Shown here in pieces: positions 3,591 to 37,677 of a DNA stretch of 37,926 nt. Origin of the DNA: Candidatus Brennerbacteria bacterium. GTDB lineage: Bacteria; Patescibacteriota; Minisyncoccia; UBA6257; JACPKE01. The stretch is taken from NCBI GenBank assembly GCA_016187205.1, contig JACPKE010000004.1, positions 1-37,926 on the forward strand. The letters run 5' to 3'. A program made the translations under genes and the position numbers. Below the pieces are notes generated by a model. It was not told the DNA's origin and ran no database searches. It saw nothing but the letters and a program-made list of their open reading frames with translations. Positions within the stretch are counted from its first letter, which is position 1, and every line of letters starts with the position of its first letter.

Positions 3591-4988
3591 TTATCGCAAC
3601 GTTTTCGTTAATTTCTTAAAAACTTTACCTCTTTCTTTGTAGTCTGTAAACATATCAAAGCTGGCTGATCCGGGGGAAAATAATATGATTAATTTAGTTT
3701 TTAGCTTATAGTTTTTTCCGCCAGAGGCGGATCCGCCTTCGGCGGAAGTTTTTAACTTATTAGCTTTTTTATATGTTAAATTAACAGCGCCTTTTAAATC
3801 TTTCGTTAAAATAATAGGCACACCGGTTTTTGAAATCGCTTTTTTTATTTTATTTTTATTTTCTCCGAATAATATAATCTCAAGCGTGTTGGAATTTTTT
3901 AAAGTGTTTGCCAATGGTTTGAAATCAAGCTTCTTGTCTTTGCCGCCGGCAATTAAAATTTTTGGTTCTTTAAAAGCTTTTATCGCGGCCGCGGTTGTCT
4001 GGGGATTGGTAGATGCGGAATCGTTATAGAAAAACATTCTAACATTCTTGAGAATGTCAGAATGTTTTTTAACAGGGATTTTAATTGATTTAATCAATTC
4101 TAAGCGATGCTCAAGGCCTTTAAAACCCTCAATTGTTTTTTTTATAATATTTTCTTTTATTTTTAAAAAGCGGCAGACTTCCGCGGCCATTAAAGCGTTT
4201 TTGATGTTATGTATCCCGTTAATTTTTAAATTTACGAAGTGGGACTTCGTAAATTTAACAGGGATTTTTTTGGCTCGGCTTTTTGCAATAATTGGTTTTA
4301 AGCCCGGCTCATTATTAAAATAAAATATTTTATCGCCGATTATTTGATTTTTTACAATTCCGGCTTTGGCATTTATATATTCTTTAAAGTTTTTATGCGA
4401 GTCTAGATGGTCGGGAAAAATATTTAAAATCACGGCGATGTTAGGGGAATATTTCAATTCTTGGAGCTGGAAGCTGGACATTTCCAGCACAACAATTGAT
4501 TTTTTTGATAAGCGCGGAAGTATTTCAATTGCTGGTTTGCCGATGTTGCCTGCCAAATAAACATCGCGCTTTGCGGCTTTTAAAATTTTATAAATCAAAG
4601 TTGAGGTTGTGCTTTTGCCTTTGGTGCCGGTTATGCCTATTGTCAGGCATTTGATTTTTTTAGTTTGTTCCAAAAATAATTCTGTGGAACTTGTTATTTT
4701 TGTTCCTGATTTCGCCGCTTCCTGTATTTCTTTTGTCATATACGGAATTCCTGGAGAACGGAAAATAACGTCAAAAATTTCCAAATTTTTAAGGTATTTT
4801 TCTCCGGATATGATTTTAACGCGTTTATTTTTTCCGCCTTTGGTGAAAAATAAAGATTTTACAGGTTTGCGGTCGCAAATCGCAATTTCATAATTTTTAT
4901 AATCGGGAGATTTTAAAAGATAGCGTAAAAGCGCTTGTCCTTCGCGGGCAAAACCAAGAATGGCGATTTTTTTATGAGTTTTTATCAA
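3591..4988 (-). CDS. murD: UDP-N-acetylmuramoyl-L-alanine--D-glutamate ligase
   Basis: Mur ligase P-loop GITGTKGKSTTSTL, an N-terminal Rossmann-like segment (IAILGFAREGQ), GIHNIKNALMAA and a LEHR motif. Length is typical of MurD. Contains two in-frame hairpin insertions (see the repeat features). Confidence 0.9.
   Translation of the reverse strand: MIKTHKKIAILGFAREGQALLRYLLKSPDYKNYEIAICDRKPVKSLFFTKGGKNKRVKIISGEKYLKNLEIFDVIFRSPGIPYMTKEIQEAAKSGTKITSSTELFLEQTKKIKCLTIGITGTKGKSTTSTLIYKILKAAKRDVYLAGNIGKPAIEILPRLSKKSIVVLEMSSFQLQELKYSPNIAVILNIFPDHLDSHKNFKEYINAKAGIVKNQIIGDKIFYFNNEPGLKPIIAKSRAKKIPVKFTKSHFVNLKINGIHNIKNALMAAEVCRFLKIKENIIKKTIEGFKGLEHRLELIKSIKIPVKKHSDILKNVRMFFYNDSASTNPQTTAAAIKAFKEPKILIAGGKDKKLDFKPLANTLKNSNTLEIILFGENKNKIKKAISKTGVPIILTKDLKGAVNLTYKKANKLKTSAEGGSASGGKNYKLKTKLIILFSPGSASFDMFTDYKERGKVFKKLTKTLR
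3717..3746 (-). repeat. 30-bp GC-rich double-hairpin element, in-frame in murD (encodes SAEGGSASGG)
   Basis: The coding strand reads TCCGCCGAAGGCGGATCCGCCTCTGGCGGA. This is 29/30 identical to the copy in gap (33062-33091). Confidence 0.85.
4226..4258 (-). repeat. 33-bp hairpin element (core GAAGTGGGACTTC), in-frame in murD (encodes ..FTKSHFV..)
   Basis: TTAAATTTACGAAGT-GGG-ACTTCGTAAATTTAA forms a 15-bp perfect stem with a 3-nt loop. The same 13-nt core occurs twice in pheT (7933-7972). Confidence 0.8.
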
Positions 4989-5054
4989 TGCGCTTTTAAA
5001 ATCAAAATTGTTTATTAATGGCTTGAATTATTGCAAGAGTGTTGATTTTTTTTG

Positions 5055-5126
5055 TGACGGCGGCAGGAATTGGACCTGCGACCTAGGGTTTATGAGTCCC
5101 TCGCTCTGCCACTGAGCTACGCCGCC
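5055..5126 (-). tRNA. tRNA with CAT anticodon (elongator Met or lysidine-type Ile2), no CCA encoded
   Basis: Reverse complement is GGCGGCGTAGCTCAGTGGCAGAGCGAGGGACTCATAAACCCTAGGTCGCAGGTCCAATTCCTGCCGCCGTCA. The cloverleaf fits, with anticodon loop CTCATAA. C11:G24 is elongator-type. The T-loop TCCAATT and an A31-A39 mismatch are slightly unusual. Confidence 0.8.
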
Positions 5127-5868: not shown

Positions 5869-6175
5869 TTGCGGATCGGGGAATCGAACCCCACCCTAAA
5901 GGTTATGCTTGCTACTACGATTTTCATCGCCTCCAAAATTAGGAGTTTGTAGTCTGGACTATACCTTAATCCTGTTTTAACGGGATTCTCGCCATCTAGT
6001 CTCTACGCCTTCTTCATCTCTTCATAATTCAGAGAAACCGAAGCTTGGTTCGGTATTACCTCTCCGTTGTTGGAAGGGGCTCCACCGAGTTTGACGAGTG
6101 TCCATCACTTATTACTAAGTGACGAGCCCATATTAAGTTTTGAGCCTTTCGAGCTCACCAGAGCTCTTATCCGCC
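5869..6175 (-). tRNA. Intron-containing tRNA, predicted anticodon CAT (initiator-like features); exons 6175..6143 and 5907..5869
   Basis: 5' exon is GGCGGATAAGAGCTCTGGTGAGCTCGAAAGGCT and 3' exon is CATAACCTTTAGGGTGGGGTTCGATTCCCCGATCCGCAA. Joined, they give a 72-nt class I cloverleaf with anticodon arm AAAGG-CTCATAA-CCTTT and T-arm TGGGG-TTCGATT-CCCCG. The 5' exon ends in U and the intron ends in G, as group I splicing rules require. Confidence 0.75.
5908..6142 (-). ncRNA. Group I intron (IC3-like), 235 nt, in the anticodon loop between positions 33 and 34
   Basis: Contains core blocks that I recall from the Azoarcus pre-tRNA-Ile intron: GTCAAACTCGGTG, CCAAGCTTCGG, and GATGAAG..GCGTAGAGACTAGATGGC followed by TTAAGG. 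No ORF lies inside. Confidence 0.75.
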
Positions 6176-6264: not shown

Positions 6265-7287
6265 ATGGATATTTTGAAAAATTTGGAAGAAATAAAAAAA
6301 TTGGCTCATCAGGATATTGAGGCGATAAAAACTACGGAAGAATTTGAAAAAGTCCGTGTTAAATATTTAGGCCGGAAAAGCGAGTTAAGCCTGGCCTTGC
6401 GTTCTATTAAAGATTTGCCGATTGAAGAACGGCGTGAAGTCGGTTTTAAAGCTCAGAAGTTGAAACGGGCATTAGAGGAATTATTTTTAAGAAAATTAAG
6501 CGAGTTAAATGTCAAAGGTCAAATGTCAATGGTTAGTTTAGATATTACAAAACCTGGCAAAAAAATTGAATTGGGCCATTTGCATCCGCTTACAAAAATA
6601 TCCCAGGAAATTAAAAATATTTTCATCTCGCTTAATTTTTCCGTTGTTGATGGTCCGCAGGTTGAAATCGAACGTTACAATTTTGACGCATTGAATATTC
6701 CGGCTAACCATTCGGCCAGGGATATGTGGGACACCTTCTGGCTGCAAAGCAGCCAGAAGGTGTCCAGCAGCCAGCTGTCAGCAGCCAGCAGCCGGTTGTT
6801 ATTGCGCACCCACACCAGTCCGGTGCAAATTCGTTATATGGAATCGCATCAGCCGCCTTTTCAGATTATCGCTCCCGGGACAGTATATCGTTATGAAGCA
6901 ACCGATGCCACCCATAGTTTCCAGTTTCAGCAACTGGAAGGTTTAATGGTCGGGAAAAATATTTCTTTCGCTAATTTTAAATATGTTATCAGCGTTTTTT
7001 TGGAAAAATTTTTCAAGCGAAAAATTGAATTTATTCTGCGGCCGAATTATTATCCTTTTGTCGAGCCCGGCGTTGATGTTTATATAAAATGGAAAAATCG
7101 CTGGCTGGAAGTGGCTGGTGCCGGCATGGTTCATCCGAAAGTTTTTGAGGCGGCGCATTATAATCCGCGGGAATGGCAGGGCTTTGCTTTTGGGTTCGGG
7201 TTGGATCGTTTAGCGATGATTAAATATAATATTCCCGACGTCAGGCTTTTTTATTCCGGCGATTTGAGGTTTATTAAACAGTTTTAA
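6265..7287 (+). CDS. pheS: Phenylalanine--tRNA ligase alpha subunit
   Basis: Class II aaRS motifs: HPLT, NFDALNIPANHSARDMWDTFW, LLRTHTSPVQIRYM, APGTVYR, FQQLEG, GAGMVHP and FGFGLDRLAM. Carries a roughly 14-aa insert between DTFW and LLRTHTS. Confidence 0.95.
   Translation: MDILKNLEEIKKLAHQDIEAIKTTEEFEKVRVKYLGRKSELSLALRSIKDLPIEERREVGFKAQKLKRALEELFLRKLSELNVKGQMSMVSLDITKPGKKIELGHLHPLTKISQEIKNIFISLNFSVVDGPQVEIERYNFDALNIPANHSARDMWDTFWLQSSQKVSSSQLSAASSRLLLRTHTSPVQIRYMESHQPPFQIIAPGTVYRYEATDATHSFQFQQLEGLMVGKNISFANFKYVISVFLEKFFKRKIEFILRPNYYPFVEPGVDVYIKWKNRWLEVAGAGMVHPKVFEAAHYNPREWQGFAFGFGLDRLAMIKYNIPDVRLFYSGDLRFIKQF
6729..6765 (+). repeat. 17-bp-stem perfect hairpin inside pheS; the left arm is conserved coding sequence
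   Basis: GGACACCTTCTGGCTGC-AAA-GCAGCCAGAAGGTGTCC, followed by further GCAGCCAG copies at 6767-6774 and 6781-6788. Confidence 0.85.
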
Positions 7288-7715: not shown

Positions 7716-9794
7716 ATGAAATTTTCTTACACTTTAATAAAAAAAATAGTTCCAGGGCTTAAAAATAAAAACCAGCTTATTGAAGCGTTAAATGAACATT
7801 CTTTTGAAGTTGTTGACGCGGAAGGCGATTCCTTTGATGTTTCGGTTCCGCCCAACCGGTTTTCCGATGCGGCTTCGCATTGGGGAATAGCGCGGGAAAT
7901 TTCCGCGATTTTAAATTTGAAATTAAATATTAAGGAAGTGGGACTTCCTAATATTAGGAAGTCCCACTTCCTAAGAGTTGAGATTAAAGAAAAAAAGCTT
8001 TGCCGGCGTTATATCGCCGAATATTTTACCAACGTTAAAATTAAGCCGTCTCCTGTCTGGATGCAGAAAATTTTAAAAGACTGCGGTTTGCGGCCGATTA
8101 ATAATGTTGTTGATATTATGAATTACGTTATGCTGGAAACCGGACAGCCGTTACACGCTTTCGATTTTGATAAAATCGAAAGCGTTAAAATCAAAAATCA
8201 AAAATCAAAAATCAAAAATATTATAATTCGCACGGCAAAACACAGCGAGGAAATTAAAACATTAGATAATCAGCAATTTATTCTTAATGCCGATGTTCTG
8301 GTTATAGCCGATTCCAAATTTCCGTTAGCGATTGCCGGCGTAAAAGGCGGTAAAAAAGCCGAGGTGGATGCCAAAACTAAAAATATCATTGTTGAAGCCG
8401 CGAATTTTGACGGTCCGAATATTTACAGAACATCAAAATTTTTAAATTTAAAAACAGACGCTTCTTTAAGATTTTCTCATAGTTTAAGTCCGTTCTTAGC
8501 CGGTTTGGGATTGGCAAGGGCGGGAGAACTGCTTATAAAAGAAGGCGCTCGGCCGCAGGCTTATTACGATTCCCATCCGGACGGACATTTGAAAAAACTT
8601 ATTGAATTTAATATTGAAAAATTCAATCATTTAATCGGCGTTAATTTAAGTATTGGGCAGGCGGAGGATTATTTAAAGCGGCTCGGTTTTTTAACGGCTA
8701 AAAACTATAACCTAAAAACTAAAAGTTCATTCTTAGTTGAAGTTCCGCAATTTCGGGCGGATATAGAAAATTCTGAAGATTTGGCAGAGGAAATCAGCAG
8801 GCTTTACGGATATAATAAAATTAAATCTTTGCCTCCCGAGGTGCCGCTTAAAATAGCCAAAACTGATGATATTATTGTTTTTAAAGACCAATTGCGGAAA
8901 ATTTTAACCGGATTTGGCGCTAGTGAAGTTTATAATTATTCTTTTGTTTCAGCGACTGACTCAAGGCTTGGTTTTGATGGTGGTAAACCGGTTGAGCTTT
9001 TAAATCCGATTAGCCCGGCGTTCCAATTTTTGCGTCCGAATTTAGCCATTGGTTTGTTAAAAAATATCAAGGAAAATTTCCGTTTTTTTGAAGAGGCAAG
9101 GATTTTTGAAATAGGGAAAGTTTTTAACAAACGCGATGTAAAACTGCGAATGCGTCCGAATCAACGAATAAATTCAAATGATACTAATATAGAAGGCTGG
9201 CTTGCCAGCCGAAGCATTAGCGAAGGCTGGCGGCTGGGAATCGCGATTGGTTCTAAAAACAAGGAAATTATTTTTGAACTTAAAGGTTTAGTTTCCGAGT
9301 TGCTGAAAAAATCTGGACTGGTTGAATTTTTTATGCGTGATGGCGGCAAAAAATCAGATTTTTTACAAGCTGACGGGGCGTTAATGATTGAATCTGATAA
9401 TTCAATTATCGGATATCTTGGCAAGGCCGGTGATTTTACCAGCGTTTGCGAGATTGATTTGGAGAAATTGCTAAATCTTGTGGAAGGCGAATTGGAATTC
9501 CGGCCATTACCAAAGTATCCGTCTGTAATGCGAGATATTTCAATCCTTGTCAGCCGCGACATAAGAATCGGGGAAATTTTGGAAGCTATGAATTCGCCGG
9601 AAATTCAATATGTTGACGATGTTGATTTGATTGATGAATATTTTAGCGATAAGCTTGGCGGCAACCGCCAGAGCCTGACTTTTCGCGTTGTTTTTCGTTC
9701 GGAAGAAAAAACCCTTGAGGACAGGGAAGTTGATAAAGAATTGGTTAAAATAGTCAATATTTTGAAAGAAAAATTTATGGCTGAAATACGTTGA
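7716..9794 (+). CDS. pheT: Phenylalanine--tRNA ligase beta subunit (short form lacking the N-terminal tRNA-binding domain)
   Basis: B3/4-type region (RYIAEYF..VKIKPSPVWMQKIL..CGLRPINNVVDIMNYVMLETGQPLHAFD), B5-like region, and a C-terminal FDX-ACB-like end (YPSVMRDISILV...QSLTFRVVFRS..KTL). Position directly after pheS supports the call. Confidence 0.9.
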   Translation: MKFSYTLIKKIVPGLKNKNQLIEALNEHSFEVVDAEGDSFDVSVPPNRFSDAASHWGIAREISAILNLKLNIKEVGLPNIRKSHFLRVEIKEKKLCRRYIAEYFTNVKIKPSPVWMQKILKDCGLRPINNVVDIMNYVMLETGQPLHAFDFDKIESVKIKNQKSKIKNIIIRTAKHSEEIKTLDNQQFILNADVLVIADSKFPLAIAGVKGGKKAEVDAKTKNIIVEAANFDGPNIYRTSKFLNLKTDASLRFSHSLSPFLAGLGLARAGELLIKEGARPQAYYDSHPDGHLKKLIEFNIEKFNHLIGVNLSIGQAEDYLKRLGFLTAKNYNLKTKSSFLVEVPQFRADIENSEDLAEEISRLYGYNKIKSLPPEVPLKIAKTDDIIVFKDQLRKILTGFGASEVYNYSFVSATDSRLGFDGGKPVELLNPISPAFQFLRPNLAIGLLKNIKENFRFFEEARIFEIGKVFNKRDVKLRMRPNQRINSNDTNIEGWLASRSISEGWRLGIAIGSKNKEIIFELKGLVSELLKKSGLVEFFMRDGGKKSDFLQADGALMIESDNSIIGYLGKAGDFTSVCEIDLEKLLNLVEGELEFRPLPKYPSVMRDISILVSRDIRIGEILEAMNSPEIQYVDDVDLIDEYFSDKLGGNRQSLTFRVVFRSEEKTLEDREVDKELVKIVNILKEKFMAEIR
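7933..7972 (+). repeat. 40-bp perfect palindrome in pheT made of two inverted GGAAGT-GGG/CCC-ACTTCC hairpins
   Basis: AGGAAGTGGGACTTCCTAAT|ATTAGGAAGTCCCACTTCCT. It encodes ..EVGLPNIRKSHFL.. and shares its 13-nt core with murD 4226-4258. Confidence 0.85.
8187..8220 (+). repeat. 7-bp microsatellite (AAAAATC, about 4.9 units) inside the pheT coding sequence
   Basis: AAAATC AAAAATC AAAAATC AAAAATC AAAAATA, encoding KIKNQKSKIKNI. Confidence 0.9.
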
Positions 9795-13812: not shown

Positions 13813-14238
13813 ATGGCTAAACTAATCAAAACAACTTTAAAATTGCAGATTGAAGCCGGGAAAGCCAATCCGGCGCCGCCGATTGGACCGGCTCTTGGCC
13901 AGCACGGCGTTAATATTCAGGATTTTTGCAAGCAGTTTAACGACGCCACCAAGGATATGACCGGGGATGTTGTTCCGGCGGAAATCACTATTTATCAGGA
14001 CAGGACTTTTGATTTTAAACTGAAAACTCCTCCGGCTTCGGCTTTGCTTAAAAAAGCCGCTGGCGTTGAAAAAGGATCCAAGGATATTTTAAAAAGCAAA
14101 GTCGGCAAGGTTTCCAGAGAAGATATCAGGAAAATAGCCGAACGCAAAATGATTGATTTGAATACCGATAATGTTGAAGAGGCGGAAAAAATAATTGCCG
14201 GCACCGCAAAATCAATGGGGATTGAGGTTATGGATTAA
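13813..14238 (+). CDS. rplK: 50S ribosomal protein L11
   Basis: [42 protein letters not shown] prefer the ATG at 13813 over the upstream TTG at 13795 given in the ORF track, because L11 proteins normally begin MAK. Confidence 0.93.
14125..14237 (+). repeat. 113-bp segment of the rplK 3' end, duplicated at 18851..18963 (1 mismatch)
   Basis: Direct comparison of the two stretches, ATCAGGAAAATAGCCGAACGCAAAATGATTGATTTG...GGGATTGAGGTTATGGATTA. The only difference is ATAATTGCC versus ATAATCGCC. Confidence 0.95.
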
Positions 14239-14374
14239 ATTTTAAGTTTATTATAATTTAAGAATTTGCGTTGTTTTTAAATAAAAAATTTCCATACCCG
14301 TTGCTTAATGATTTTTGACCAAAATAATGATAGAATAACGGTATGATGAATATTTTTTAAACAATCTATAAATT

Positions 14375-18733: not shown

Positions 18734-18970
18734 ATGGTTAAAAAATTATTCACAATCGAAGGAATGCATTGCGGCGCTTGCGCCGCCGGCATTGAGAAAG
18801 GTTCCGGCGACGTTTTAAAAAAAACAGCTGGTAAAATCAGCAGGGAAGACATCAGGAAAATAGCCGAACGCAAAATGATTGATTTGAATACCGATAATGT
18901 TGAAGAGGCGGAAAAAATAATCGCCGGCACCGCAAAATCAATGGGGATTGAGGTTATGGATTATTTTTAA
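18734..18970 (+). CDS. Chimeric ORF: HMA-like N-terminal fragment fused to a second copy of the L11 C-terminal domain
   Basis: [16 protein letters not shown] carries the GMxCxxC heavy-metal-associated signature. It is followed by [60 protein letters not shown], which corresponds to L11 residues from about 84 to the end. The last 113 bp are near-identical to rplK. It may be a pseudogene. Confidence 0.45.
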
Positions 18971-28293: not shown

Positions 28294-28313
28294 TTTTAGT
28301 ATAGTATAATATC

Positions 28314-28367
28314 TAGTATCTAGTATCTAGTATCTAGTATCTAGTATCTAGTATCTAGTATCTAGTA
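28314..28367. repeat. 7-bp microsatellite (TAGTATC x7 plus a partial unit) in a divergent intergenic region
   Basis: Perfect TAGTATC units from 28314 to 28362, then TAGTA. Lies between the sugar transferase start (28293, -) and the DsbA-like start (28388, +). Confidence 0.95.
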
Positions 28368-32992: not shown

Positions 32993-34036
32993 ATGAAAAA
33001 TGTAAAAATAGCAATAAACGGGTTTGGCAGGATAGGCCGGCTTTTTTTCCGCCAGGCTTTTTCCGCCCAAGGCGGATCCGCCTCTGGCGGAGGTTTAGAT
33101 ATCGTTGCCGTTAATGATCTGGGCGATATTGAAAATTTGGCTTATTTGTTAAAATACGACACTGTTTACGGCCGGTTCGCCAAAGAGATAAAAGTAAAAA
33201 GCGATAAGTTAATTGTTGATAATAAAGAAGTTAAATTTATTCAGGAAAAAGATCCGGCGCGGCTGCCCTGGAAAGATTTGGGAATAGATATTGCGATTGA
33301 ATCAACGGGATTTTTTGAATCCTATGATAAAGCTAAAGCGCATATCGGCGCCGGAGCCAAACGGGTTGTTATTACCGCTCCGGCAAAAGATCCGGACGGC
33401 GTTGAAGGGAAAACAATCTTGATTGGAGTGAATGAAGCAGAGGCAAAAGGCATTGTTTTGACTTCAAACGGTTCCTGTACCACTAATGCCGCGTCTCCGG
33501 TAATCCAGATAATGTCCGAAAATCCGGGTATTCAGAAAGCGATTTTAAACACGGTTCATGGCTATACCGCTACGCAGAATTTGGTTGACGGGCCGACCAA
33601 GGGCAAGGATTTCCGGCGCGGCCGGGCCGCGGCCCAAAATATTTCGCCTTCAACAACCGGCGCGGCTATCGCGGTTACCCGCGTCATTAAAGAATTGGAA
33701 GGAAAATTTGACGGCGTGGCTTTGCGGGTGCCGGTTGCGACGGGTTCGGTCGCCGATATCACTTTTCTGGCAAAACGGAAAACTACCGAAGCTGAAATTA
33801 ACGATATTTTTAAACAAGCTGCCGCGTCTCCGAGATGGAAAGGGATTTTAGCCGTCACCGAAGACCAGATTGTTTCTTCGGATATCATCGGCGAACCATA
33901 CGGCGCGATTGTTGATTTGAAATTTACCAAAGTTGTTGACGGCGATCTGGTGAAAATTTTGTCATGGTATGATAATGAAGCCGGATATGTTTCAACACTT
34001 ATCAAACATGTTTTAAATGCCGCCGCATTAGTTTAA
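32993..34036 (+). CDS. gap: Type I glyceraldehyde-3-phosphate dehydrogenase
   Basis: KIAINGFGRIGR, the SNGSCTTNAASP active-site Cys, and WYDNEAGY at the C-terminus. Confidence 0.95.
   Translation: MKNVKIAINGFGRIGRLFFRQAFSAQGGSASGGGLDIVAVNDLGDIENLAYLLKYDTVYGRFAKEIKVKSDKLIVDNKEVKFIQEKDPARLPWKDLGIDIAIESTGFFESYDKAKAHIGAGAKRVVITAPAKDPDGVEGKTILIGVNEAEAKGIVLTSNGSCTTNAASPVIQIMSENPGIQKAILNTVHGYTATQNLVDGPTKGKDFRRGRAAAQNISPSTTGAAIAVTRVIKELEGKFDGVALRVPVATGSVADITFLAKRKTTEAEINDIFKQAAASPRWKGILAVTEDQIVSSDIIGEPYGAIVDLKFTKVVDGDLVKILSWYDNEAGYVSTLIKHVLNAAALV
33062..33091 (+). repeat. 30-bp GC-rich double-hairpin element, in-frame in gap (encodes SAQGGSASGG)
   Basis: TCCGCCCAAGGCGGATCCGCCTCTGGCGGA. It inserts between the GRIGR helix and the IVAVND strand, where E. 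coli GapA as I recall it is about 7 residues shorter. Confidence 0.85.
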
Positions 34037-35338: not shown

Positions 35339-35800
35339 ATGATTATTTACATCGCTTCAGACCATCGGGGTTTTCAATTAAAAGAAGCGTTAAAGAATTT
35401 TTTAAAAGCGAACGGGTATACGGTAGAAGATTTAGGAAATAGCCGGCTGGATAAAGAAGACGATTATCCGGATTTCGCCGCCAAAGTCGCCAAGATAATC
35501 AGTGAAGATTATTACAATGAGCGGCGCGGCATTGTTTTATGCGGTTCCGGTGTCGGCGTTGATATCGTGGTTAATAAATTCCCGCGCGTTCGTTCGGTTT
35601 TGGCGATTTCGCCGGATCAGGCGTCCGTCAGCAGGAATGACGATGACACCAATGTTTTGTCTTTAGCCGCTGATTTCATGGAAGAAGAAAAAGTTAAAAA
35701 AATCGTTTCTGTCTGGCTGCAAACGCCTTTTGCAGGAGAAGCCAAGAATAAACGGCGGCTGGATAAAATCGCGGAGATAGAAAAGACAATTAACATTTAA
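35339..35800 (+). CDS. rpiB: Ribose-5-phosphate isomerase B
   Basis: IYIASDHRGFQLKE, GIVLCGSGVGVDIVVNKF.RVR and RNDDDTNVL (RpiB/LacAB family). Confidence 0.9.
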   Translation: MIIYIASDHRGFQLKEALKNFLKANGYTVEDLGNSRLDKEDDYPDFAAKVAKIISEDYYNERRGIVLCGSGVGVDIVVNKFPRVRSVLAISPDQASVSRNDDDTNVLSLAADFMEEEKVKKIVSVWLQTPFAGEAKNKRRLDKIAEIEKTINI

Positions 35801-35821
35801 CAATTGACATTTGACTATTAT

Positions 35822-36463: not shown

Positions 36464-36602
36464 TAGCAAGTAAACAGTGTTTGATTTTATGACAACATTC
36501 CAATATTCTCAAGAATGTTGGAATATTAAAAAATAACATAACTAGCTTTTTAAGAAAATTAAATAAAATAGCCGCCCTATATAAAAAGACGGCTGACAAC
36601 TA

Positions 36603-37071: not shown

Positions 37072-37677
37072 TTGGAAAAAGGGGGTATATCGGCAACGGT
37101 GAGAGGTATGACCATCACTCTCGCTATGGACGATAGACAATTGTCCACCATCCAGGAGGTCGAACGGTTTACCGCGGGAACGGCGGCTGCCCTGTTTCGC
37201 GGCAGTTCGCGCAAGGAAAAGTACGCCTGGGCGGAAGCAACCCTCATCCGCTTCCGCTACGCGCGGCTTCGCAAGAAGGAAAGGTCGTCGGTCAGGGAGT
37301 TTATCCGCAAAATCACCGGCTATTCCGACATCCAGACTAAGCGGCTCATCGGACAGTACCTCGACTCGGGCAAAGTGCTCCTCCAGTCTTGTTTCAACGA
37401 ATATCTGAATTTCCACCGTCCCTGCGGGTTTGCCACCGTGATTGTGGATGCTAAAGGCAAAGAGAAGAAAATATATAACGTGTATGAAACCCCGTATGAG
37501 AGGTTCGGATCGCTTTCCGGAGCGGAACAGTATCTCAAGCCGGGTGTCTCGTTCGCCGAGCTTGATTGCGTTGCCCAGAGGATGAGCGATACCGAATATG
37601 CTATGATGAAGCAAAAGGCCGAATTATTGTCCGCTATAGGCGGAGCCGCTTCAGGCGGAAAAAACCTCTCTCGTTAG
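37072..37677 (+). pseudogene. Transposase remnant (HTH N-terminus joined directly to the C-terminal tail; DDE core missing)
   Basis: The N-terminal part (..KEKYAWAEATLIRFRYARLRKKERSSVREFIRKITGYSDIQTKRLIGQY) is followed directly by the tail NEYLNFHRPCGFATVIVDAKGKEKKIYNVYETPYERF..AEQYLKPGVSFAELD. In full-length rve-type transposases that tail follows the catalytic domain. There is no DDE region in between. Confidence 0.6.
37630..37659 (+). repeat. Diverged copy of the 30-bp double-hairpin element at the 3' end of the transposase remnant (SAIGGAASGG-KN)
   Basis: TCCGCTATAGGCGGAGCCGCTTCAGGCGGA. Both hairpins are retained through T-G wobbles, and it is followed by AAAAAC as in murD. Confidence 0.65.

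Follow-up and report, generated by a model that had tools for sequence, protein, structure and literature searches.

In a 37,926-nt contig of a Candidatus Brennerbacteria bacterium (JACPKE010000004.1; this whole stretch is referred to as the window), the gene murD carries a 30-nt GC-rich palindrome, folded as two side-by-side hairpins, with a direct repeat on either side. Our analysis indicates that the palindrome probably lies nested between two tandem copies of an independent AT-rich heptamer module, and that the repeat is the periodicity of this module. The palindrome and the module form two independent and widely dispersed families, and the module is present at the murD and pheT sites of relatives that have no hairpin. 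The window has ~38% GC and is of Patescibacteria type; the homologues of its MurD, PheT and GAPDH proteins come from metagenome-assembled genomes (MAGs) of Patescibacteria, Wolfebacteria and Paceibacterota. An original prediction for this contig had proposed that the flanking repeat was either part of a composite mobile unit together with the hairpins or a target site duplicated on their insertion; on the evidence below, neither proposal should be carried forward.

Repeat and palindrome in murD

The host gene (3591–4988, minus strand) encodes UDP-N-acetylmuramoylalanine–D-glutamate ligase, an assignment that follows from its open reading frame (ORF) and translation and from homologues in which Pfam recognises Mur ligase domains and which their sources annotate as MurD. 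No exact match to the window's MurD is on record with either L or M as the first residue, and no strain-level relative was found in the collections. The palindrome and the module copies are located in the loop preceding the LFSPGSASFD strand of the C-terminal domain. On the plus strand, the site reads AGTTTTTAGCTTATAG (3696–3711), a run of six T residues (3712–3717), CCGCCAGAGGCGG-AT-CCGCCTTCGGCGG (3718–3745), a single A and AGTTTTTAACTTATTAG (3747–3763), with the two GC hairpins at 3718–3730 (CCGCCAGAGGCGG) and 3733–3745 (CCGCCTTCGGCGG). The direct repeat therefore has the sequences and the positions (3696–3711 and 3747–3763) that had been predicted for it, but its arms, which had been put at 16 and 17 bp, are really 21 and 22 nt long, and the T5 linker described between them is a T6 run, the last T of which belongs to the palindrome and the other five to the repeat.

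The palindrome, TCCGCCnnnGGCGGATCCGCCnnnGGCGGA (equivalent to TCCGCCAGAGGCGGATCCGCCTTCGGCGGA), occupies 3717–3746 and reads SAEGGSASGG on the murD coding strand. Heptamer module copy 1, which lies upstream on the coding strand (3747–3768, minus strand; AAAAGCT-A-ATAAGTT-AAAAACT), encodes (K)ANKLKT and contains the predicted 17-nt repeat; copy 2, which lies downstream (3693–3716, minus strand; AAAAACT-ATAAGCT-AAAAACT-AAA), encodes KNYKLKTK and is the 24-mer that recurs in pheT. Written on the coding strand, the flank repeat is AAAAGCTAATAAGTTAAAAACT (22 nt, the reverse complement of 3747–3768) and AAAAACTATAAGCTAAAAACT (21 nt, the reverse complement of 3696–3716), and the two module copies differ by two substitutions and one indel (19/21 positions plus the 1-nt indel). 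Both copies are flush with the palindrome. Translation confirms that the 51-nt span 3696–3746 preserves the murD frame, as had been claimed, and the protein continues in frame through repeat and palindrome as ..NKLKTSAEGGSASGGKNYKLKTK.., or, over a longer stretch, ..KKANKLKTSAEGGSASGGKNYKLKTKLIILFSPGSASFD...

The murD flank repeat exceeds chance expectation. Pairs of flanks separated by 30 nt match as well as those of murD at 6 of 5407 sampled window positions (0.1%), the murD site itself being among the six, and flank repeats as long as murD's (match score of at least 11) are found at 5 of 123 hairpin copies elsewhere, against 1 in ~3000 mismatched-flank controls. When exactly 30 nt are deleted from murD, the remaining sequence is an unbroken, in-frame heptamer array, ..TTAAAAA CTAAAAA CTATAAG CTAAAAA CTAAATT.. 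(..KKANKLKTKNYKLKTKLIILFSP..), that is, two tandem module copies, and the match between murD and pheT is lengthened by 2 nt, to 25/26.

We propose that the MurD loop that precedes the final strand of the C-terminal domain tolerates insertions, and that two unrelated, short, frame-compatible repeats may have colonised it. The AT-rich heptamer module would occupy the loop in the form of a tandem pair, one copy 21 nt and the other 22 nt long, and the GC palindrome would have inserted as a precise 10-codon block, with no target duplication, at a T-rich|A-rich junction that is also a heptamer unit boundary. The murD 'direct repeat' would then be tandem periodicity that belongs to the module and that the palindrome has interrupted. 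We interpret the repeat as the periodicity of an array, rather than as a scar of insertion, because a 30-nt block placed at a unit boundary of a period-7 array gives lags of 37 and 44, and the flush position of the palindrome fits its junction consensus because the unit boundaries are of the form ...TTT|AR....

Filled and empty alleles in GAPDH

The window contains a second copy of the palindrome, in the GAPDH gene (32993–34036, plus strand), at 33062–33091, where it reads SAQGGSASGG. Among close relatives, the GAPDH orthologues are polymorphic for the hairpin at two loops: P0243 is filled at both sites, P0245 at site 2 only, the window at site 1 only and P0242 at neither. At site 2 (around residue 67), loci L128 and L126 are filled while the window and L125 are empty, and their alignment contains one clean 30-nt gap, GTTGTT|TCCGCCCAAGGCGGATCCGCCTCTGGCGGA|GAAGGA versus ATTGTT|GATAAT, with no duplication. 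The protein lengths agree with a 10-codon unit (348 aa = 338 + 10). Site 1 (residue 22), which holds the window's copy, is filled in 6 of 120 orthologues, every one of which has an empty nearest neighbour, the closest pair being 95.7% identical; in the two filled/empty pairs with DNA, 9 nt of the native loop have given way to the same 30 nt, also without a duplication.

Because of the clean gap at site 2, we take the inserted unit to be TCCGCC...GGCGGA, 30 nt or 10 codons long, and neither 51 nt nor 36 nt. The statement that the murD copy adds 'exactly 17 codons' is sound as arithmetic, but the orthologues disagree with it: the loop, 26 aa long here, measures 12 aa in one of the two closest relatives and 13 aa in the other. 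The same alleles, together with the lack of a flank repeat at most copies, speak against target-site duplication as the general mechanism by which the palindrome inserts.

A palindrome family across phyla

To define the family, genomes were scanned for the pattern CCGCCNNNGGCGGATCCGCCNNNGGCGG, with one genome per species, and at least 120 stretches matched. Copies with exact stems are present in at least 120 genome stretches from many phyla. The 80 listed stretches, with G+C contents from 30 to 70%, cover many Patescibacteria classes, and further taxa among them are Omnitrophota, Kiritimatiellae, Verrucomicrobiota, Planctomycetales, Ignavibacteria, Lentisphaerae, Chloroflexota and MAGs labelled Gammaproteobacteria. 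The hairpin pattern was found in two viral contigs and the module in none, and on these numbers phages were rejected as the vectors that carry the two elements.

The 30-mer is palindromic except in its loops, with halves TCCGCCnnnGGCGGA|TCCGCCnnnGGCGGA and hence terminal inverted repeats; the first loop is purine-rich and the second pyrimidine-rich. Folded as DNA, it forms two 6-bp hairpins of −12.9 kcal/mol (z = −4.1). The flanks have the consensus tTyT|core|ArAa, with a T before and an A after the core in nearly all copies, and the outer flanks are softly T-rich on the left and A-rich on the right, from which we infer that the palindrome prefers T-rich|A-rich junctions. Stop-free spans of at least 450 nt hold 79 of 124 copies, and the SAxGGSAxGG frame is the one used in 67 of these 79, where random phase would give one third. 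Rfam returned no family at gathering score for 3690–3770, 8698–8724 or 33062–33091, and a known RNA was accordingly rejected as the identity of either the palindrome or the module; the Rfam matches in the window are two tRNAs and a group I intron, all of them elsewhere.

All three palindrome copies of the window lie within ORFs, and the murD-type module flank is absent at the other two. The third copy, TCCGCTATAGGCGGAGCCGCTTCAGGCGGA (37630–37659), is degenerate and sits at the 3' end of an rve-type DDE transposase ORF (37072–37677, plus strand), the only transposase-like ORF in the window. This ORF is internally deleted, matching positions 1–94 and ~320–405 of homologues of ~413 aa; its region has a raised G+C content, and the degenerate hairpin copy replaces the transposase C-terminus. 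A Pfam search of the remnant itself gave no domain. Its full-length homologues, of ~413 aa with an rve core, lack the hairpin peptide, which is also absent from the other 149 matches listed for the remnant (the top match is the window's own protein), a comparison made without a systematic genome search. We rejected the possibility that the hairpin is part of the neighbouring transposase or of its ends, as the homologues end differently and without the hairpin peptide.

Two further observations concern the palindrome. In several Kiritimatiellae and Verrucomicrobia MAGs (L005, L008 with two copies, L031 and L055), the hairpin is embedded in a longer conserved repeat, CATAGGAATTTT[hairpin]ACAATCCGTC..., and in these groups it may be a piece of a larger element. 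Across the window, TCGA, GATC and GGCC are under-represented (observed/expected, O/E, of 0.29, 0.52 and 0.64, respectively), yet the centre of the hairpin is GGATCC; the scarcity of these tetramers hints at restriction-modification pressure.

A heptamer module family

The heptamer module has the consensus AAAAGCT-ATAAGCT-AAAAGCT-AAAAGCT, built from 7-nt units of the form WAAARCT, and only one of its six frames is open, encoding K[S/N]Y[K/N]LK[A/T]K. It folds with just −0.8 kcal/mol (z = 0) and has no inverted ends. A scan of metagenome contigs for the pattern AAAARCTATAASCTAAAARCTAAA yielded 102 copies in 101 stretches, with unrelated flanks and in unrelated housekeeping genes, which bears out the suggestion that solo copies of the murD flank exist elsewhere. 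The identical 24-mer AAAAGCTATAAGCTAAAAGCTAAA accounts for 69 of the 102, and the match mostly has another AAAAGCT-like unit before it and AGCT after it. Pfam searches of the module-bearing ORFs identified MurD, a MurC-type Mur ligase, TsaD, PriA, a class I aminoacyl-tRNA synthetase and a GT1 glycosyltransferase. Long ORFs contain 66 of the 102 copies, every one in the single open frame. A second direct copy lies within 70 nt in 12 of 91 distinct contexts and an inverted second copy nearby in 6 of 91. The 24-mer of murD copy 2 is itself found, identical, in metagenome loci L130, L145, L181 and L195.

These loci bear directly on the composite unit, in which the hairpin and one flank copy (51 nt, 17 codons) would move together and solo flanks would be remnants. 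A length of 51 nt is divisible by 3, solo flanks do exist, and the two families can co-occur in one genome and, as the ValRS-like ORF of L156 shows, within one gene. Against this, none of the 102 module copies adjoins a GC hairpin: the 690 kb of module loci contain three hairpins, none of them adjacent to a module, and the two with positions compared are more than 1 kb away. Conversely, no module-like sequence is present in 854 kb around 125 hairpin copies, so that the co-occurrence check that had been suggested for the two modules finds them adjacent in neither set of loci. The hairpins, moreover, span many phyla, while the module has no viral match and is not in the cross-phylum hairpin loci, and the two remaining hairpin copies of the window have no such flank. 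The composite unit is rejected on these counts.

The same scan weighs on whether the murD and pheT segments are simply low-complexity K/N/L coding sequence that converged by chance in an AT-rich genome, where replication would have slipped locally and no dispersed element would be involved. In favour of this, heptamer periodicity is seen in the region, with a unit number that varies among relatives as slippage would have it; K-rich peptides are also frequent in the proteome, and by our own rough estimate an identical 7-residue peptide is not rare by chance within the window. However, dinucleotide-preserving shuffles expect 0.00 matches to the 24-mer, and its pattern occurs 102 times in the metagenome contigs versus roughly one by chance (a rough estimate), with 69 identical copies in unrelated genes. 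Arrays of (NNNAGCT)x3 are nearly absent from other genomes, with 4 sites in 854 kb, and the frequency of AGCT in the window is ordinary (O/E 0.91). We therefore regard this explanation, which the metagenome scan contradicts, as improbable. Since AGCT is not avoided, restriction avoidance was also rejected as the cause of the AGCT-to-AACT changes shared by the murD and pheT modules.

For coding DNA, the window is unusually rich in period-7 repeats, and Tandem Repeats Finder reports several other such arrays: TATCTAG (x8.3, 100% identity) in intergenic DNA at 28310–28367, AAAATCA (x4.7, 100%) inside pheT at 8187–8219, and ACAATTA (x5), AAAGGTC (x3.9) and CCAGCAG (x4.3) at 35786–35820, 6507–6533 and 6764–6793, respectively.

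The module in pheT

In pheT, the module occupies 8698–8724 (plus strand) as CT-AAAAACT-ATAACCT-AAAAACT-AAAAG and encodes KNYNLKTK; Tandem Repeats Finder describes it as period 7, 3.9 copies, with the unit CTAAAAA. The predicted recurrence of the murD 24-mer holds, with 23/24 matches between 3693–3716 (minus strand) and pheT (8700–8723) and with the stated peptide, but the match ends at 8723 and not at 8724. The pheT orthologues align without gaps over the module, where they read KSYKLKAKSSF, KNSKFKAKNSF, SQKLKTKNSF and QNQKLKAENSF, and K-L-K-A/T is kept in orthologues of ~50% identity. At the same codons, the pheT orthologue in L123 has AAAAGCTATAAGCTAAAAGCTAAAAGC (AAAAGCT ATAAGCT AAAAGCT AAAAGC). 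Judged from these alignments, the pheT module is native sequence common to the orthologues and a resident member of the module family; it is not an insertion relic peculiar to this genome.

The close match between the two genes could also reflect recent intragenomic copying or conversion, from the pheT module to murD copy 2 or in the opposite direction, with the hairpin arriving in that event or later. Module copy 2 of murD and the pheT copy share a rare A..A variant (AAAAACT..AAAAACT) that is found in 5 of the 102 metagenome copies, and a relative from sample SRR22388306 carries the GCT variant in pheT. Nevertheless, a common variant could equally be a lineage subfamily, and murD of the relative L001 reads AAC TAC AAA CTA AAA ACT AAA, which places the ACT variant at this site before the split of the two lineages. 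Copying of this kind is very improbable in our estimation.

The murD loop in relatives

The two closest MurD proteins (72% and 71% identity) have no hairpin. In one, L001, the murD site is ACAAACT ACAAACT AAAAACT AAAAACT, which encodes TNYKLKTKN and amounts to one NYKLKTK copy; in the other, L002, it is AATAAGCT AATAAAGCT GAAAGCT GAAAGCT, which encodes NKLIKLKAES and amounts to two AAGCT-type copies, with GAT AAT AAG CTA where the window has murD module copy 1. The number of heptamer units at the site is 4 in L001, ~5 in L002 and ~6 in the window. Module peptides occupy the same MurD loop, with no hairpin, in P0002 (NYKLKTKN), P0008 (KNYNLKPKN), P0060 (KSYKLKTKS) and an ORF of L198 (KSYKLKAKS). 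It had been argued that hairpin-free relatives with both flank copies in murD would mark the repeat as ancestral; L002 fits this description, in AAGCT-type form, and L001, with its single copy, does not. From this distribution, the two murD module copies would be older than the hairpin.

Aligned with the Streptococcus agalactiae MurD structure (PDB 3lk7), the loop has 4 residues in the structure and 24 in the window. The MurD homologues in our alignment (P0001–P0072) vary in length between 410 and 556 aa, and their insertions recur at particular hot spots; several of these inserts resemble translated short-period repeats, with segments of the LPTTNYQLPTTI, SSQWSAVSSQWSAV and RINADKNKIRVNQRKYQRKSAS types.

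The single copy in L001 also leads to the alternative that target-site duplication produced the murD repeat. Starting from one hairpin-free module copy, as in L001, insertion of the palindrome would have duplicated either 7 nt (AAAAACT) or the whole 21-nt module. Such a duplication predicts copies that are exactly flush on both sides, as they are in murD, where the 7-mer AGTTTTT recurs without a mismatch (7/7) at lag 37. In the family as a whole, the 7-mers on either side of the palindrome match at 5 or more of 7 positions in 22 of 123 copies, versus 4.9 by shuffled pairing, and at 7/7 in three, murD included; the lag spectrum has peaks at 37 (30 + 7, z = 5.2) and 44. Against a duplication stand the clean 30-nt gap at GAPDH site 2 and the lack of duplicated bases at site 1, the two hairpin-free copies in L002, and the reading frame, since a 37-nt gain would shift the frame and yet 67 of 79 long-ORF copies are in frame. 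Nor is there a duplication of fixed length in the family, as in 101 of 123 copies the abutting 7-mers agree at fewer than 5 of 7 positions, and flank repeats that score at least 11 are limited to the five mentioned above. Periodicity explains about half of the abutting matches: adjacent 7-mers within a single hairpin flank match at 5 or more of 7 positions in 8–12 of 123 copies, versus a genome background of 2.1%, about half of the 22 matching copies sit in arrays that already repeat within one flank, and in the three 7/7 copies removal of the 30 nt restores a perfect array. We consider target-site duplication at murD unlikely, though it is the alternative to which we give the most weight.

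Several of these observations nevertheless weigh against a palindrome nested in a pre-existing array. The lag peaks at 37 and 44 and the single NYKLKTK copy of L001 also fit duplication at insertion, and a roughly twofold excess of flush 7-mer matches (22 versus 8–12 within a flank) is left over once periodicity is accounted for. That both murD copies are exactly flush is what target duplication predicts, while nesting needs the junction preference that we infer. The nearest murD relatives are 71–72% identical in protein, and the ancestral state of the loop is not reconstructable at this distance; the scan pattern fixed the order of the module units, so that the diversity and boundaries of the module as given here are biased by the method of discovery; and the analysis turned up neither a mechanism nor a partner enzyme for the palindrome or the module.

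Other repeats and neighbouring features

Apart from the module and the GC palindrome, an AT-rich palindrome, AACATTCTAACATTCTTGAGAATGTCAGAATGTT, is present in two copies that are 85% complementary, one in murD (4033–4066) and one intergenic (36494–36527). The murD copy reads HSDILKNVRMF, and peptides of the SNILKNVR type occupy this site in many MurD orthologues, suggestive of a third in-frame repeat family. Related palindromes around ACGAAGTGGGACTTCGT and GGAAGTGGGACTTCC occur within murD (4221–4257) and pheT (7920–7987), and Tandem Repeats Finder reports a period of 23 at 7926–7974, inside the pheT palindrome region. A group I catalytic intron (Rfam, 59 bits, gathering score 50) lies at 5931–6152 on the minus strand, between tRNA-Met (5054–5126) and an ORF (6265–7287) that is apparently pheS. 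A 187-nt direct repeat of 87% identity is located at 14056–14242 and 18782–18968, 4.7 kb apart.

Possible origin and significance

It is possible, although we put this forward only tentatively, that the palindrome and the heptamer module represent two undescribed families of ultra-short modules (30–35 nt) that spread in the loops of essential genes and are kept because one of their frames gives a harmless peptide. The palindrome would insert as a block of exactly 30 nt, with no duplication of the target, at T-rich|A-rich junctions in more than 10 phyla, which would imply a widely shared insertion route; candidates are single-strand hairpin integration and short-patch recombination after DNA uptake. 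The heptamer module (KSYKLKAK) would spread alone, apparently among the same groundwater Patescibacteria-type genomes. In a bolder variant, the period-7 arrays beside the palindrome would be footprints of repeated insertion and excision. For the AGCT module we judged 7-nt excision footprints unlikely, as footprints would be locus-specific and the module is one conserved 24–28-mer.

[quoted passage not shown] Precise insertion of 30 nt without target duplication points to an uncharacterised mechanism. The modules would also explain much of the length variation and many of the odd low-complexity loops of conserved Patescibacteria proteins, such as MurD (410 to 556 aa), and they would matter for gene annotation, for phylogenomic alignments and for the reading of Gly/Ser-rich or K-rich 'linkers' in these proteomes.

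Comparison with known systems

A search of the literature for the peptide GGSASGG, for GGCGGATCCGCC and for Parcubacteria palindromic repeats returned only papers on synthetic linkers, primers and CRISPR, a separate Patescibacteria search gave nothing of relevance, and no earlier account of either family turned up; as this search was partial, it does not establish that the two families lack a prior description.

The heptamer module resembles a coding tandem repeat of the kind that slippage produces (microsatellite or variable number tandem repeat), as its 7-nt units are arranged head to tail and their number differs among orthologues. Slippage arrays are specific to a locus, however, whereas the 24–28-nt unit order of the module is found in over 100 unrelated loci; in addition, a 7-nt period is not divisible by 3, and only one of the six frames of the module is open. 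The palindrome resembles the REPs and REPINs mobilised by RAYT (IS200/IS605-like Y1) transposases in having two side-by-side GC-rich hairpins, a length of ~30 nt, many copies per lineage and no expected target duplication. REPs are by definition extragenic and are species- or genus-specific. The palindrome, in contrast, is mostly inside ORFs (79/124 copies in long stop-free spans) and crosses phyla.

With MITEs, the palindrome shares its short length, the lack of a coding capacity of its own, inverted-repeat ends, many dispersed copies and some in-frame fusions. It differs in having no target-site duplication at the cleanest filled/empty site and in being far shorter than the MITEs that have been described, and no autonomous element with matching ends was found, the homologues of the rve remnant lacking the hairpin and no systematic genome search having been made.

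A further parallel is with the RPEs, palindromic repeats that lie inside unrelated housekeeping ORFs and add a tolerated extra peptide in frame (PMC10969869, citing Ogata et al. 2000). RPEs are about 100–150 bp long, form about ten families and are confined to Rickettsia (PMC10969869). Like them, the palindrome is in frame in unrelated genes (murD, GAPDH, the transposase remnant and 67 of the 79 long-ORF copies elsewhere). Unlike them, it is 30 nt long and has identical stems in MAGs of many phyla, with Patescibacteria and others as hosts, and the heptamer module is not palindromic. Both elements thus behave, in effect, like RPEs, but their size, sequence and host place them outside that family.

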